DNA from: Nostoc sp. PCC 7120 = FACHB-418
Lineage (GTDB): Bacteria > Cyanobacteriota > Cyanobacteriia > Cyanobacteriales > Nostocaceae
Reading direction: 5' to 3'
Assembly: GCF_000009705.1 (NCBI RefSeq)
Contig: NC_003272.1
Coordinates: 6,210,001 to 6,242,000, forward strand
DNA: 32,000 bases
Shown here piece by piece: positions 11,825 through 17,007 of this stretch; positions within the stretch are counted from its first letter, which is position 1, and each line of letters begins with the position of its first letter. The translations under genes and the position numbers were made by a program. Below the pieces are notes generated by a model, which saw nothing but the letters and a program-made list of their open reading frames with translations, was not told the origin of the DNA and ran no database searches.

Positions 11825-14800
11825 TTAAGCTGTATAGTCTGCTGTATCTGCGATCGCTCCCTGCATTCTCCCTAACGCATCAATCAAGCTTTGCAATTGT
11901 TGATCTGCTTTGAGGACTGCTAAACCTCTGACGGTGACTTTACCAGGAGAGTAAACAAAGCGGGTTTTGAGATGTTCTGGTAAGTTCGCCGCCAGTAAAT
12001 TCCATGCAGGTTCTTCCATTGGGGTTTCTAAAACCACGTGCTGTTTACTTTCTGGCTTGATGCGGCTAAATCCTAATTTTTTGGCTAGTTGTTTCAGTTC
12101 CATTACCCGCAAGAGTTGATTGGCGCTGACTGGTAAAGTACCATAGCGATCGCTCCACTCGGCTGCAATCTGGGTTAACTCGTCTTTGGACTTAGCAGCC
12201 GCTACCGCACGATATGCACTCATTTTTTGGTCGATGTCGGTAATGTAATCGGCGGGGATAAAGGCGGTGAGGTTGAGGTCAATTTGAGTATCGTCAACTT
12301 TGGGAATTTCTTGACCGCGAATTTCTCGAATTGATTCTTCCAACATTTCCATGTATAAATCAAACCCGATTGCTTCCATTTGACCGGATTGTTCTGCACC
12401 AAGCAAGTTACCCACCCCCCGGATTTCCATGTCGCGCATGGCTAATTGATAGCCGGAACCAAGTTGAGTAAATTCCTGAATCGCTCGTAATCGTTGCCGG
12501 GCTGCGTCAGATAACTCTCTTTGCTTGGGGTAAAATAACCAGGCGTGGGCTTGAATCCCTGCACGTCCCACCCGTCCCCGTAACTGGTAAAGTTGGGATA
12601 AACCAAAGCGGTGAGCATCTTCAATCAGGATGGTGTTGACACGGGGAATATCTAAGCCAGATTCAATAATTGTGGTACATACCAAAATATCTGCGTCACC
12701 ATTGCTGAAAGTGAGCATGGTTGATTCTAACTCGCTCTCATCCATTTGCCCGTGGGCGATCGCAAATCTGGCTCCGGGAACCATCTCTCGCAAATTGGCG
12801 GTAATCTCTTCGATGCCATCAACCCGTGGAACTACATAAAATACCTGCCCACCCCGGTCAAGTTCTTGACGAATAGCGCTGCGTACACTTTCCGGGTTTC
12901 TGGGGGAAAGATGGGTTTTAATTGGTCGTCTGGTAGGGGGTGGTGTGGTGATTAAACTCATTTCCCGAATCCCAGACAAGGACATATACAAGGTGCGGGG
13001 AATGGGAGTAGCGGAGAGAGTCAATACGTCAACTTGGGTTTTCAAGGACTTAATTTTCTCCTTCTGGTTCACCCCAAATCGTTGTTCCTCATCTATGACC
13101 AACAGTCCTAAATCTTTGAAACTGACACTTTTACCTAAAAGTTGGTGCGTCCCTACCACAATATCTAACTCACCAGTCGCCAATCGCTTTTGAATATTCC
13201 GCCGTTCTTCGGCTGTGCGGAAACGATTCAGTAACCCAACATTCACAGGGTATGGGGAAAAGCGTTCTTTGAGGGTGTGGTAATGTTGCTGGGTGAGAAT
13301 GGTTGTCGGTGCGAGGAGGGCGACTTGTTTACCGGAAGTCACCGCTTTGAAAATAGCGCGAATCGCCACTTCCGTTTTCCCGAAACCCACATCACCACAT
13401 ACTAAACGATCCATTGGGCGATCGCTTTCCATATCCCGTTTTACATCTTGGACGGCTTTTAGCTGGTCGGTTGTCGCTTGGTAGGGAAAAGAATCTTCCA
13501 TTTCCTCTTGCCAAGGCATATCTTGGGGATAGGCGAAACCTTGCTGTTGCGATCGCGCTGCATATAATTTCAGCAAGTCTACTGCTAATTTTTTAATCGC
13601 CTTACGGACACGATTTTTGGTATTGTCCCAAGCTTTCCCCGTCATTTTATGCAGTTCCGGCGCTTTATCTCCCGTCGTGCGGAACCGAGACAAGGAACCT
13701 ACTTGATCAGCCGCAACCCTCAACAGACCGTCAGCATACTGCACCACAATATAATCACGAGTTTCATCATTAATTGTCAGACTCTCCAGCTTGACAAACT
13801 TGCCAATCCCATGACTTCTGTGAACTACATAATCCCCTTGACGCAGCTTATTAGGGTCAACTTGCTTAGAAGCCGCCTGACGACGCTTACGGACAAAGCT
13901 CGGTGTAGCGAGGGAGTGTTGACCATAAAATTCGCGGTCGGTGATGACTACTAGGCGATAGGTAGGGAGAATAAAACCTTCCAGTTCCGCCAAACCAGAA
14001 TATTTCAAAGCTACAGGGGTGTGGTTGATTTGCAGCTTGTCAATCGCTTGGTAATCGCGGGGATTGGGGATAAACTGCGCCGGACAATCGTGTTCTTGTA
14101 GTAGAGAAACAGAACGGGAAGGTTGAGCCGAAATTAACCAAATCGAGAAATTGCGATCGCGCTCTTGTCTTAATGTGTCTGCCAGTTTAGCAAATTGGTG
14201 GGGTGTCACCGGCACAGACCGACTAGCTAAATTTACCCCGCTATTTTCTTCAGATAGTTCTGATAAATATAAGGTTTTAAATCGAGTCACATCAGCCAAA
14301 CATTCCTCAAAAGACCGATGAATTTTGGGCAATTGTACACTTCCCAAATCCGCTTCTCCCGTTCCCAGTGACCATTGTTCCTCTGCATTTTCCACCCAGC
14401 GATCGCTATGAGCATGACACTGTTCTGGCTCATCAATCGCAATTAAAGTATTTTCTGACAAATAATCCAAAACAGATGCAGGTCGCTCAAAAGCCAACCC
14501 CAAAAAGCGCCGGCTACCTTCTGTGAGTGTTGAGTCAGAGCTTAACTCAGAACTTAGCACTTGGTATTCAGCACTATTCTCAAGTGCAGTCGTAATAATA
14601 GGAGCAAAACTTGTAGGCGTAAGCACAATTTGCGTTATTTTGTCAAGCGCCGAACGTTGAGTATTGGGGTCAAATTCCCGGATTTGCTCAATTTCATCCC
14701 CAAACCATTCCAACCGTACCGGCAACTCTGAGGAAACTGGAAACACATCGACAATATCCCCCCGGCGGCTCCACTGTCCCTCTGTTTCCACCAGGGGAAC

Positions 14801-15382
14801 ACGCTCATATCCCAAAATAGTAATTTTCTCACTGAAGGTATCTAAATCAAATTCCAGCCCCCGCGTGAGAGTCAGGGAAAAAGGAATAAAAGCATCTGGT
14901 GGTGGTAAATGGGGTTGCAAGGCTCCAACAGTAGCAACGACGGCTATTTTATTTTGTTGACCGTTGACTGTTGACTGTTGACCGTTGACCGTTGACTGTT
15001 GACTGTTGACTGTTGACTGTTGACTGTTGACTGTTGACTGTTGACTCTTAACCAAATCAGCAAGGACTTGCATCTGACCCCAAGTCATTTCCGTTTCCGG
15101 GTCAAATGGTTCGTAGGGAGAGGCTTCTGAAGTGGGATAAAAATGTACTGTTTGCCATCCCATCGCTTCCAACTGTGCGTAAGCGCGCCCGGCTTCTTCT
15201 AAAGTGGCACAAACCACAAATAAGTTATTGCCAGAATTTTGCGCCAAAGCGGAAGTCACCAAGCCCTTTGGTAGGCGGGAAATGCCATTTAATCGCAAAT
15301 CTTGCTGGCGATTGAGCTTAGAAATTAATTCAGTGGTGAGTGGCGATCGCGCCAAGGCACGCACAATAGAAGAAAAAGCCAT
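11825..15382 (-). CDS. mfd: Transcription-repair coupling factor Mfd
   Basis: It has superfamily-2 helicase motifs: [21 protein letters not shown] (DExx box), [11 protein letters not shown] and QLRGRVGR. It also has a CarD/RNAP-interaction region ([14 protein letters not shown]) and a length typical of Mfd. Confidence 0.95.
14956..15046 (-). repeat. STRR-type heptanucleotide tandem array, 13 units, embedded in frame in mfd
   Basis: The + strand reads GTTGACC x3 and GTTGACT x10, head to tail. The coding strand AGTCAAC is a circular permutation of CAACAGT. It is translated as (S/G)QQSTVN repeats. Confidence 0.9.
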
Positions 15383-15678
15383 AAGTTAGGAAGTCGTTGC
15401 AGAACAGAAAATCTAGAGGTAGCCTATGTCAACTATTTTAAAAGTGTTAAACACTCCTCTTAATATTTCTGTGGAACAATAATACTCAACAAATTGAGGA
15501 ATCCATGAAAAATGCTGATTACTGAGTAAGATATTCTCTCCCCGCTCCCCTGCCTCCTCTACCTTCTTGAAAAAAAACCTACTACTTTGTGTATAGTTAA
15601 AGAATTTATGAGAAAACCTTTAATACTAGATACTAAGGATTGAGCTAAGTTCGCTCTATATAGCGGCAATTCATCATC

Positions 15679-17007
15679 ATGTCTTCCATCACTGTTGAAA
15701 TTTTAATTATTTTGGTACTAATTGTTGCTAACGGCATTTTTTCCATGTCGGAGATGGCGATCGTCTCAGCGCGGAAGGTAAGGCTACAGCAACTGGCGAA
15801 TCAAGGAGATCCCAAGGCCAAAGCTGCGCTGAAATTGGCAGAATCCCCGAATAATTTCCTTTCTACCGTACAAATAGGTATTTCTCTGATTGGTATTCTG
15901 ACTGGTGCTTTTGGAGGAGCTACAATTGCCAGCCGGCTAGCAGTTTACGTGCGGCTCGTACCGTTTTTAACACCATACAGTGAGCCAGTTTCCTTCGGCA
16001 TAGTAGTTTTAATTATTACCTACTTATCGCTGATTATTGGTGAACTTGTGCCGAAGCGTCTGGCCTTAAACAGTCCTGAACGTATTGCTGCCATTGTCGC
16101 TATTCCCATGCGTGCTTTAGCAACTTTGGCTTCTCCGGCGGTGCATTTGTTGAGTGCATCTACCGACATGGTACTGCGAATTATGGGTATTACACCTTCT
16201 CTAGAACCACAAGTCACGGAAGAAGAAATTAAAATCCTCATAGAACAAGGTACGGAAGCGGGAACCTTTGAGGAAGCAGAACAGGACATGGTAGAGCGAG
16301 TTTTTCGTTTAGGCGATCGCCCTGTCAGTTCCTTTATGACACCCCGTCCTGATATCGTCTGGCTGGATTTGGAAGACACAACCGAAGAAAATCGCCAAAA
16401 AATGAGTGAAAATGGTTATTCCCGTTATCCGGTATGCCAGGGAGGATTGGACAATGTACTAGGCATTATTCCCGTCACCGACTTACTCGCCAGAAGTCTC
16501 AGAGGCGATTCCCTAGATTTAACAGTGGGATTGCGTCAGCCTGTATTTGTTCCTGAAAGCACACGTGGCTTAAAAGTTTTGGAGTTATTTAAGCAAACTA
16601 TCACTCACATGGCGCTAGTCGTCGATGAATACGGCGTAATTCAGGGATTAGTTACCCTAAACGACATCATGAGCGAAATTGTTGGCGATGTACCTTCGGC
16701 TGATGGAGAAGAAGATCCTCAAGCCGTGCAACGGGAGGACGGTTCCTGGCTACTCGATGGAATGTTAGCCGTGGAAGAATTTTTTGAACTGTTTGGACTG
16801 GAGGAGTGGGACTTTGAAGAACGAGGTAGCTATCAAACCCTTGGTGGTTTTGTCATTACCCATCTCGGCCGCATTCCCGCCGCCGCCGATCATTTTGAAT
16901 GGCAAGGTATGCGAATTGAGGTCATGGACATGGATGGCAACCGCGTTGACAAAGTGCTAGTCGTGCCGACGAAAAATAAGGTGGCAGATACGCAAAAAGC
17001 TGATTAG
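15679..17007 (+). CDS. Hemolysin-family / CNNM-type protein (DUF21 membrane domain, CBS pair, CorC_HlyC domain)
   Basis: The N-terminal TM domain carries SMSEMAIVSAR. VFRLGDRPVSSFMTPR leads into the CBS pair. The C-terminal part is QTLGGFVITHLGRIP...G.RIEVMDMDGNRVDKV. Confidence 0.9.
   Translation: MSSITVEILIILVLIVANGIFSMSEMAIVSARKVRLQQLANQGDPKAKAALKLAESPNNFLSTVQIGISLIGILTGAFGGATIASRLAVYVRLVPFLTPYSEPVSFGIVVLIITYLSLIIGELVPKRLALNSPERIAAIVAIPMRALATLASPAVHLLSASTDMVLRIMGITPSLEPQVTEEEIKILIEQGTEAGTFEEAEQDMVERVFRLGDRPVSSFMTPRPDIVWLDLEDTTEENRQKMSENGYSRYPVCQGGLDNVLGIIPVTDLLARSLRGDSLDLTVGLRQPVFVPESTRGLKVLELFKQTITHMALVVDEYGVIQGLVTLNDIMSEIVGDVPSADGEEDPQAVQREDGSWLLDGMLAVEEFFELFGLEEWDFEERGSYQTLGGFVITHLGRIPAAADHFEWQGMRIEVMDMDGNRVDKVLVVPTKNKVADTQKAD

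Follow-up and report, generated by a model that had tools for sequence, protein, structure and literature searches.

Can slippage in a short tandem repeat switch a DNA repair gene on and off in a cyanobacterium, or is such a repeat simply tolerated by the protein into which it is translated? The question is raised by the mfd gene of Nostoc sp. PCC 7120, whose reading frame runs through an array of heptanucleotide units. Mfd couples transcription to nucleotide excision repair and promotes mutagenesis in several bacteria, and a frameshift hot spot in its gene could therefore create heterogeneity in repair or mutation rate within populations of this model cyanobacterium, a standard laboratory strain. 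STRR sequences of heterocystous cyanobacteria were reportedly described by Mazel et al. in 1990, STRR3 being CAACAGT. The DNA analyzed here is a stretch of 32 kb, referred to below as the window; coordinates given without a contig name are positions in it. We assign a probability of about 0.6 to the reading that the mfd array is a slippage-prone STRR microsatellite which is tolerated in a permissive loop of D1a and is kept in frame by purifying selection.

The heptamer array in mfd

The gene and the array are located as follows.

11825 to 15382, - strand: mfd, transcription-repair coupling factor, 1185 aa (Pfam, exact-sequence match to BAB76914.1, and Foldseek)
14956 to 15046, - strand: STRR-type heptanucleotide array of 13 units (direct reading, TRF, and dimer count)

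Direct reading of the + strand gave 13 head-to-tail 7-nt units without interruption at 14956-15046, composed of 10 GTTGACT and 3 GTTGACC units in the order C,T,T,C,C,T,T,T,T,T,T,T,T (GTTGACC being units 1, 4, and 5). The coding strand reads AGTCAAC x8, GGTCAAC x2, AGTCAAC x2, and GGTCAAC x1. Tandem Repeats Finder (TRF) reported the array at 14955-15046 with period 7, 13.1 copies, 95% matches, and a score of 163, by far the top score in the window, and the dimer pattern GTTGACYGTTGACY had 12 matches, against 0.05 expected in shuffles. The original prediction of 13 uninterrupted heptamers within mfd thus agrees with both direct reading and TRF, although the two variants are interleaved and do not occur as three of one followed by ten of the other. 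Likewise, the 1185-aa frame reads through the array as had been proposed: the array starts at nt 337 of the coding sequence, i.e., at codon 113 in phase 0, and occupies codons 113-143, which encode (S/G)QQSTVN units as stated.

It is the only array of this unit in the 32-kb window. AGTCAAC is a rotation of CAACAGT, which we take to be the STRR3 consensus, and the array presumably resembles STRRs in this respect as well as in its tandem 7-nt unit and its heterocystous host. The earlier identification of the unit as a permutation of CAACAGT in such a host holds insofar as the rotation is exact and the protein is that of PCC 7120 (BAB76914.1). Arrays of the same unit (AGTCAAC) are also found between genes elsewhere in Nostoc (L037 2806-2833, GGTTGAC x4; L017 2781-2807; L004 1342-1392).

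Independent assemblies provide 18 contigs that encode the exact 1185-aa protein, one of them a chromosome of 6,413,771 bp, and identical Mfd entries are BAB76914.1 (PCC 7120), BAY70813.1, NIES-23, and FACHB-709. Since these 18 contigs are identical and relatives carry homologous arrays at the same site, the array of PCC 7120 is real, and the possibility that the reference array is an assembly artifact, which the prediction had named as a check, can be ruled out.

Two further properties of the array were examined. TTGACT repeats on the + strand recall a promoter element, but the 2 promoter-like sites at 14700-15700, against 1.4 expected, are unremarkable. As for a hairpin or cruciform that might aid slippage, single-strand folds were no better than those of shuffled sequences (z = -1.27 and +0.94).

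Position of the array in the Mfd protein

All five Pfam domains of Mfd (UvrB_inter, CarD_TRCF_RID, DEAD, Helicase_C, and TRCF) scored above their cutoffs, and the Mfd/TRCF architecture is complete, with a UvrB-homology N-terminal module, an RNA polymerase-interaction domain, an SF2 translocase, and a C-terminal TRCF domain. The array lies in the following segment.

14945 to 15055, - strand: hypervariable D1a loop, aa 110-146, with the C-terminal end GQQNKI (motif-delimited comparison and AlphaFold)

When aligned with the Mfd of Mycobacterium smegmatis by HMMER, residues 14-119 correspond to residues 44-147 and residues 144-255 to residues 150-259, indicating that the repeat is an insertion. 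The counterpart in Escherichia coli Mfd is the short D1a loop STLYQLPTMQRGVLIVPV (LPTMQRG, 6-7 aa), and mycobacteria have almost none. The insert is thereby placed between a helix and the next strand, within D1a. Residues 1-400 were modeled with AlphaFold on the basis of an alignment of 67 cyanobacterial sequences; the mean pLDDT was 89.5, falling to 70 at aa 121-130 and to 49 at aa 131-140. The first repeat units are still part of a modeled helix (aa 97-123), and strand structure begins again at residue 146. The best Foldseek matches were the Mfd structures 6ac6, 3hjh, and 2eyq; TM scores were 0.67-0.76 for Mfd structures and 0.6-0.76 for Mfd and UvrB structures taken together. These results suggest that the insert is probably an exposed and disordered loop within D1a. 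A surface loop in the N-terminal UvrB-homology module, as originally proposed, is thus consistent with the low pLDDT and with the insertion relative to other Mfd proteins, whereas the placement at D1a/D2 has to be corrected, as the HMMER alignment puts the insert inside D1a at the position of the E. coli LPTMQRG loop.

Frame properties of the array

As 7 and 3 have no common factor, a perfect AGTCAAC array gives the same cyclic heptapeptide, SQQSTVN, in all three sense frames. There is no stop codon in any sense frame of such an array, and TGA is present in all three antisense frames, so that the array can be carried within a gene in one orientation only. Directly behind it lie the following stop codons.

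14944 to 14951, - strand: stop codons immediately 3' of the array, one per alternative frame: TAA (14949-14951) and TAG (14944-14946), which both fall in AAAATAAAATAG

When slips of -2, -1, +1, and +2 units were simulated, the products measured 139, 143, 146, and 150 aa, with tails that end in ...STK or ...NKIK before the stop; this early termination is due to AAAATAAAATAG behind the array, which supplies TAA and TAG in the other frames. Simulated slips of three units in either direction gave proteins of 1178 and 1192 aa, in which the frame is kept and only the length of the loop is altered. The simulated products agree with the earlier claim that slips of one or two units shift the frame of mfd and that a slip of three units changes loop length only. 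The anatomy of a contingency locus is therefore present, with a unit not divisible by 3 located in the 5' part of the coding sequence (codons 113-143 of 1185).

Out-of-frame alleles

Alleles in which mfd is out of frame (OFF alleles) were searched for, the query being the 112 residues that precede the array, and short N-terminal products were retrieved. P0298, a protein of 136 aa that ends in ...STVNKIK before the stop, is encoded on contig L168 (ENA ERZ926327, run ERR1254282), which, apart from one mismatch and one gap of 28 nt, agrees with the window along 2150 nt; its array consists of AGTCAAC x8 and GGTCAAC, i.e., 9 units (-4). Contig L169 (NCBI GCA_034691575.1, 220 kb) differs from Nostoc indistinguendum L043, to which it is 96.8% identical, by the loss of exactly one CCCAATC unit, and contig L170 (ENA ERZ27246989, 27.9 kb) differs from L083, to which it is 98.9% identical, by the loss of exactly two GACAAAG/T units. 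In L169 and L170, mfd is split into short open reading frames (ORFs) of 188 and 174 aa and long ones of 1011 and 1023 aa, respectively. The OFF alleles thus occur in three independent lineages, each being a contraction that splits mfd, and in every case the source is a short-read metagenome assembly. Among the PCC 7120-type assemblies, which number about 21, one is OFF, and no reversion was seen among the three OFF alleles found in public assemblies.

L168 retains the perfect 56-nt run of the reference (8 identical units), and the contexts shared across the deletions are 11 nt in L169 and 20 nt in L170, below the usual k-mer sizes. Judging from how assemblers would be expected to behave on such sequences, collapse in a de Bruijn graph is an unlikely cause of the three OFF alleles.

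Additional N-terminal fragments that are frameshifted at or near the site (P0300, P0303, P0308, P0313, P0315, and P0321) were seen at the protein level. L171 (Logan SRR14117739) and L172 (ENA ERZ27292216) carry an mfd frameshifted at or next to the site but have no close in-frame comparator, and the Logan assembly of L171 (k = 31) may collapse repeats. P0255, P0283, and other short members of the cluster were rejected as array-truncated products, as they are C-terminal or internal fragments. Sorting N-terminal fragments by their unaligned tails as a measure of the frameshift rate per site proved too noisy.

A separate disruption was observed in L161 (JGI 3300014713, Ga0169447_101448), a PCC 7120-type contig with an intact heptamer array, in which a 58-nt deletion between AACTTGC microhomologies (window 13800-13857) splits mfd into ORFs of 517 and 658 aa. 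In this strain background, mfd has thus been disrupted a second time, independently of the L168 allele; an upstream difference in the same contig is merely a run of N. Taken together, the OFF alleles in three lineages and the disruption in L161 raise the possibility that loss of Mfd is neutral or favored in some settings.

Length stability and the contingency hypothesis

Unit numbers in the close relatives of PCC 7120 were as follows.

NIES-2111 (L166), 93% protein identity to PCC 7120: 13 units in a 21-nt super-period of the pattern (A,A,G)
Anabaena variabilis ATCC 29413, 96% protein identity: 1 unit, a 57-nt nonrepeat block, and 6 units
CCY 9910, 94% protein identity: 4 units
Nostoc carneum NIES-2107: 7 units
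UHCC 0399 (Anabaena sp., L165), 89% protein identity: about 22 units, among them four copies of a 21-nt super-unit
Nostoc parmelioides, 97% protein identity: insert of the same length as in PCC 7120, 37 aa, with one S-to-G change

The alignment of orthologues that had been suggested as a check thus defined the insertion and the number of units per strain (13, 13, 7, 4, 7, and about 22, beginning with PCC 7120), and all differences among these close relatives are multiples of three. Thirteen units are common to three lineages whose proteins have diverged by 3-7%, as confirmed at the DNA level for PCC 7120 and NIES-2111 and deduced from insert length for N. parmelioides, which argues that length turnover is not fast. 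Within the PCC 7120 type, 13 units are kept in about 20 of 21 assemblies: 18 contigs encode the exact protein, one more differs only at residue 834, and the array of L161 is intact. The ATCC 29413-type protein is identical on 12 contigs.

For a broader comparison, 160 representative loci were assembled from 80 species-representative genomes and 80 metagenome contigs; the best matches in scans of genomes and metagenome contigs were 82-84% identical, so that neither collection contains PCC 7120 or its nearest relatives, and close relatives were reached via a protein index instead. All 160 loci are open across the site, as judged by flanking motifs in 151 and by uninterrupted translation in 9.

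These data bear on the hypothesis that mfd is a contingency locus, i.e., that a lineage gains from stochastic and reversible slippage between ON and OFF states of Mfd and for this reason retains a long, pure tract. Several features are those expected of such a locus. A non-triplet unit is repeated 13 times starting at codon 113 (of 1185), a stop codon follows immediately in either of the other frames, OFF alleles differ by whole units (-4 in PCC 7120-type DNA and -1 and -2 in two other Nostoc lineages), and mfd has been independently disrupted in another PCC 7120-type sample. Moreover, heptanucleotide tracts drive phase variation elsewhere, an example outlined in PMC8262952 being hmw1A of Haemophilus influenzae. 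Against this stand the ON state of 160 out of 160 representative loci, the retention of exactly 13 units throughout nearly all PCC 7120-type assemblies, and the occurrence of that same number in three diverged lineages. Tracts in orthologues are mostly short and impure, the heptamer family is not conserved, and the three OFF alleles are without exception contractions, with no reversion among them. Cells of Anabaena PCC 7120 hold several copies of the chromosome (oligoploidy), which would hide a recessive frameshift and delay its segregation. Finally, similar arrays appear to occur throughout these genomes, in spacers and in other loops, without a link to switching. We therefore consider a contingency function unlikely. 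As for the prediction that mfd is switchable, whole-unit out-of-frame alleles do exist (-4, -1, and -2), but reversibility, a high rate, and an adaptive role did not find support. At every representative locus, mfd is ON.

A variant of this hypothesis is that mfd is phase variable in Nostocales, slippage reversibly toggling between full-length Mfd and either a null state or an N-terminally truncated Mfd that would be devoid of the inhibitory clamp and of UvrA recruitment. The second ORFs of 1011 and 1023 aa in L169 and L170 are a hint of translational restart downstream, but we regard phase variation as doubtful. If true, subpopulations would differ in transcription-coupled repair and mutagenesis, and mfd would become the first example of a contingency locus from a cyanobacterium, as well as the first such locus to affect a factor for repair or evolvability.

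Hypervariability of the D1a loop among Nostocales

In the 151 motif-delimited loci, the segment that follows the conserved QMQVLAD (site 1) is 27-255 nt long, and its sequence is unrelated between lineages. Depending on the lineage, the unit is AGTCAAC, AGTCATT, GACAAAT, ATGGGGA/ATGGGGC, ACTGGGG, CCCAATC, AATTACC, or TGGTCAG, and up to 11 copies of a 21-nt unit of the AQELSLN type are present at the site. The inserts encode acidic, glycine-rich, or Q/N-rich peptides of 9-85 aa. As lineages carry unrelated peptides and DNA with a period of 7 nevertheless recurs, it is the repeat DNA and not the peptide that characterizes the site; conservation of the repeat peptide at the protein level was ruled out by the same observation. 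In most orthologues the array is short or degenerate and its perfect runs comprise 2-5 units, which fits a microsatellite in birth and decay rather than a maintained mutable tract. The tract of PCC 7120, with 8 identical units in succession, has the highest TRF score among all site 1 arrays.

Heptamer arrays are not restricted to this loop. TRF, applied to about 0.9 Mb of mfd loci, detected two more heptamer sites within the gene, at about aa 270-300 and aa 340-370, and showed that long arrays are frequent in the spacer upstream of mfd in Nostocales. In PCC 7120, the two sites correspond to the following segments.

14495 to 14599, aa 262-296: further site, a degenerate remnant with lowered pLDDT
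14303 to 14377, aa 336-360: further site (site 3), a degenerate remnant with lowered pLDDT

The earlier statement that such arrays are normally intergenic was therefore too strong, considering the three sites in mfd and the report by Rehm et al. (2015) that 32% of the GGGGA(C/T)T heptamer arrays in PCC 7120 lie within genes (PMC4692102).

The recurrence of inserts at site 1 also raises the possibility that the segment rich in S, Q, T, and N is a functional linker, i.e., an adaptive flexible spacer or a module for interaction or condensation, whose length would tune the N-terminal clamp or the recruitment of UvrA. Every Mfd protein of Nostocales has an insert of at least about 9 aa at this position, the helix at aa 97-123 in the AlphaFold model runs into the first repeat units, and the N-terminal module, as described for PDB 3hjh, restrains the motor domains. 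However, neither the sequence nor the composition nor the length of the insert (9-85 aa) is constrained across lineages, foreign hairpin mini-elements and a 57-nt nonrepeat block are tolerated at the site, and the Mfd proteins of E. coli (LPTMQRG, 6-7 aa) and of mycobacteria (almost none) work with few residues. The lack of constraint and the tolerance of foreign insertions make a functional linker improbable.

The remaining explanation, that the array or its length is an artifact of assembly or sequencing, is very remote: tandem repeats are error-prone in short-read assemblies and L168, L169, and L170 come from MEGAHIT-type metagenome contigs, but the reference array is the same in 18 contigs from independent projects and technologies and has homologous counterparts in relatives, L168 keeps exactly 8 identical units, unlike a low-k collapse, and the shared contexts of L169 and L170 measure only 11 and 20 nt.

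A tolerated microsatellite as the preferred explanation

We thus favor the tolerated microsatellite, which could have arisen and evolved as follows. Slippage-prone DNA of the kind that appears to litter the genomes of Nostocales would have colonized the disordered surface loop of D1a in Mfd and expanded there, confined to one orientation and read as a polar linker of low complexity. The number of units would then change through replication slippage. Changes by multiples of three units (21 nt) would only resize the loop, whose peptide we assume to be neutral, and could be fixed; other changes would shift the frame into the stop codons behind the array and produce mfd alleles that are null or N-terminally truncated. 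Such alleles may arise repeatedly but would mostly be transient, being removed by purifying selection. In favor of this explanation are the location of the insertion at a site of low pLDDT, the other heptamer sites, the multiples of three among relatives, the ON state of 160 of 160 loci, and the rarity of out-of-frame alleles; counting against it are the length and purity of the PCC 7120 tract, its position early in the gene, the stop codons in both alternative frames directly behind it, the OFF alleles of the three lineages, and the separate disruption of mfd in L161.

On this reading, the array makes mfd a loss-of-function hot spot. More generally, the locus shows selfish 7-nt microsatellites, together with hairpin elements that land in them, in the course of being absorbed into proteins. 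Absorption appears to be tolerated in one orientation only, in permissive loops only, and in steps of 21 nt only, and yields low-complexity peptides that are specific to a lineage.

Comparison with known repeats and switches

Repeat-mediated switching in a mutator gene is known from the 6-bp repeats of Salmonella mutL. The mfd array resembles these in being a tandem repeat in a DNA repair gene that could modulate mutability; the mutL repeats are in-frame hexamers that alter the protein, whereas the heptamers of mfd shift the frame.

STRRs as such, their occurrence in the gene for RNase P RNA (Vioque 1997, as cited in PMC7593598), and intragenic heptamer arrays in PCC 7120 are already known. 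The array in mfd is similar to the STRRs of the RNase P RNA gene, as that source presents them, in that it lies within a functional gene where the structure tolerates it, but it is translated and hence subject to constraints of frame and orientation. It also resembles the GGGGA(C/T)T repeats of PCC 7120 (PMC4692102), which occur in the same organism with the same period, form arrays within ORFs, and vary widely in unit number. That study deals only with a G-rich, quadruplex-forming family, and does not cover the AGTCAAC family, mfd, effects on the reading frame, or comparative hot spots.

With the contingency loci of Haemophilus, Neisseria, and Campylobacter, as outlined in PMC8262952 and PMC11868660, mfd shares a non-triplet repeat, slippage by whole units, and OFF alleles in populations. 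Classical contingency loci are surface or restriction-modification genes of host-adapted pathogens, with frequent ON/OFF polymorphism and measured reversible rates. In contrast, mfd is a repair gene that is ON nearly universally, it resides in a free-living cyanobacterium that is oligoploid, and its repeat presumably belongs to a genome-wide family. The literature searched contained no description of the D1a loop of mfd as a recurrent heptamer hot spot, of the rule of three among relatives, or of whole-unit frameshift alleles of mfd, and yielded no data on mfd phenotypes in Anabaena.

Other insertions and arrays at mfd loci

Examples of arrays at the further sites within mfd are L017 3787-3819 and 4008-4048, L025 4042-4074, and L079 2960-3026. 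Site 3 is wholly different between PCC 7120 and N. parmelioides despite an overall identity of 97%. Arrays are also present in the spacer between mfd and the gene of a CNNM-family protein, as in L006 2766-2860 (TGGGTAA x13.6), L001 2835-2927 (TCCCCAA x12.9), and L058 2686-2836; in the corresponding spacer of PCC 7120 (window 15383-15678), TRF detected no heptamer array.

Contigs of the ATCC 29413 type (L163/L164) carry a nonrepetitive 57-nt block, CCTCCGGGTTCGGCAGTTCGCAATCGACGGTAACCGCCAAGACTGCGACTGCCTCAC, that splits the AGTCAAC array in frame after its first unit, and in L004 the same point is occupied by a different block, of 45 nt. Diverged heptamers expand as 21-nt super-units, as seen for TCTCAACAATCAATAGTCAAC x4 in UHCC 0399 and for (A,A,G) in NIES-2111; such arrays may in effect represent a repeat that has been turned into a frame-safe minisatellite.

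Hairpin mini-elements of approximately 45 nt (GGAGSCASTGCG...CAASTGSCGT) are inserted in frame in the site 1 heptamer arrays of L031, L064, L040, L045, and L046, where they are translated, e.g., as RRQCGLGVSPSGATAV. These elements recall the small dispersed repeats that Elhai et al. are said to have described in 2008. Further copies occur elsewhere in the loci (L057 6877-6916, L012 4080-4125, L038 3759-3799, and L066 213-258), which suggests that they may be small mobile elements that target heptamer arrays or ride on them.
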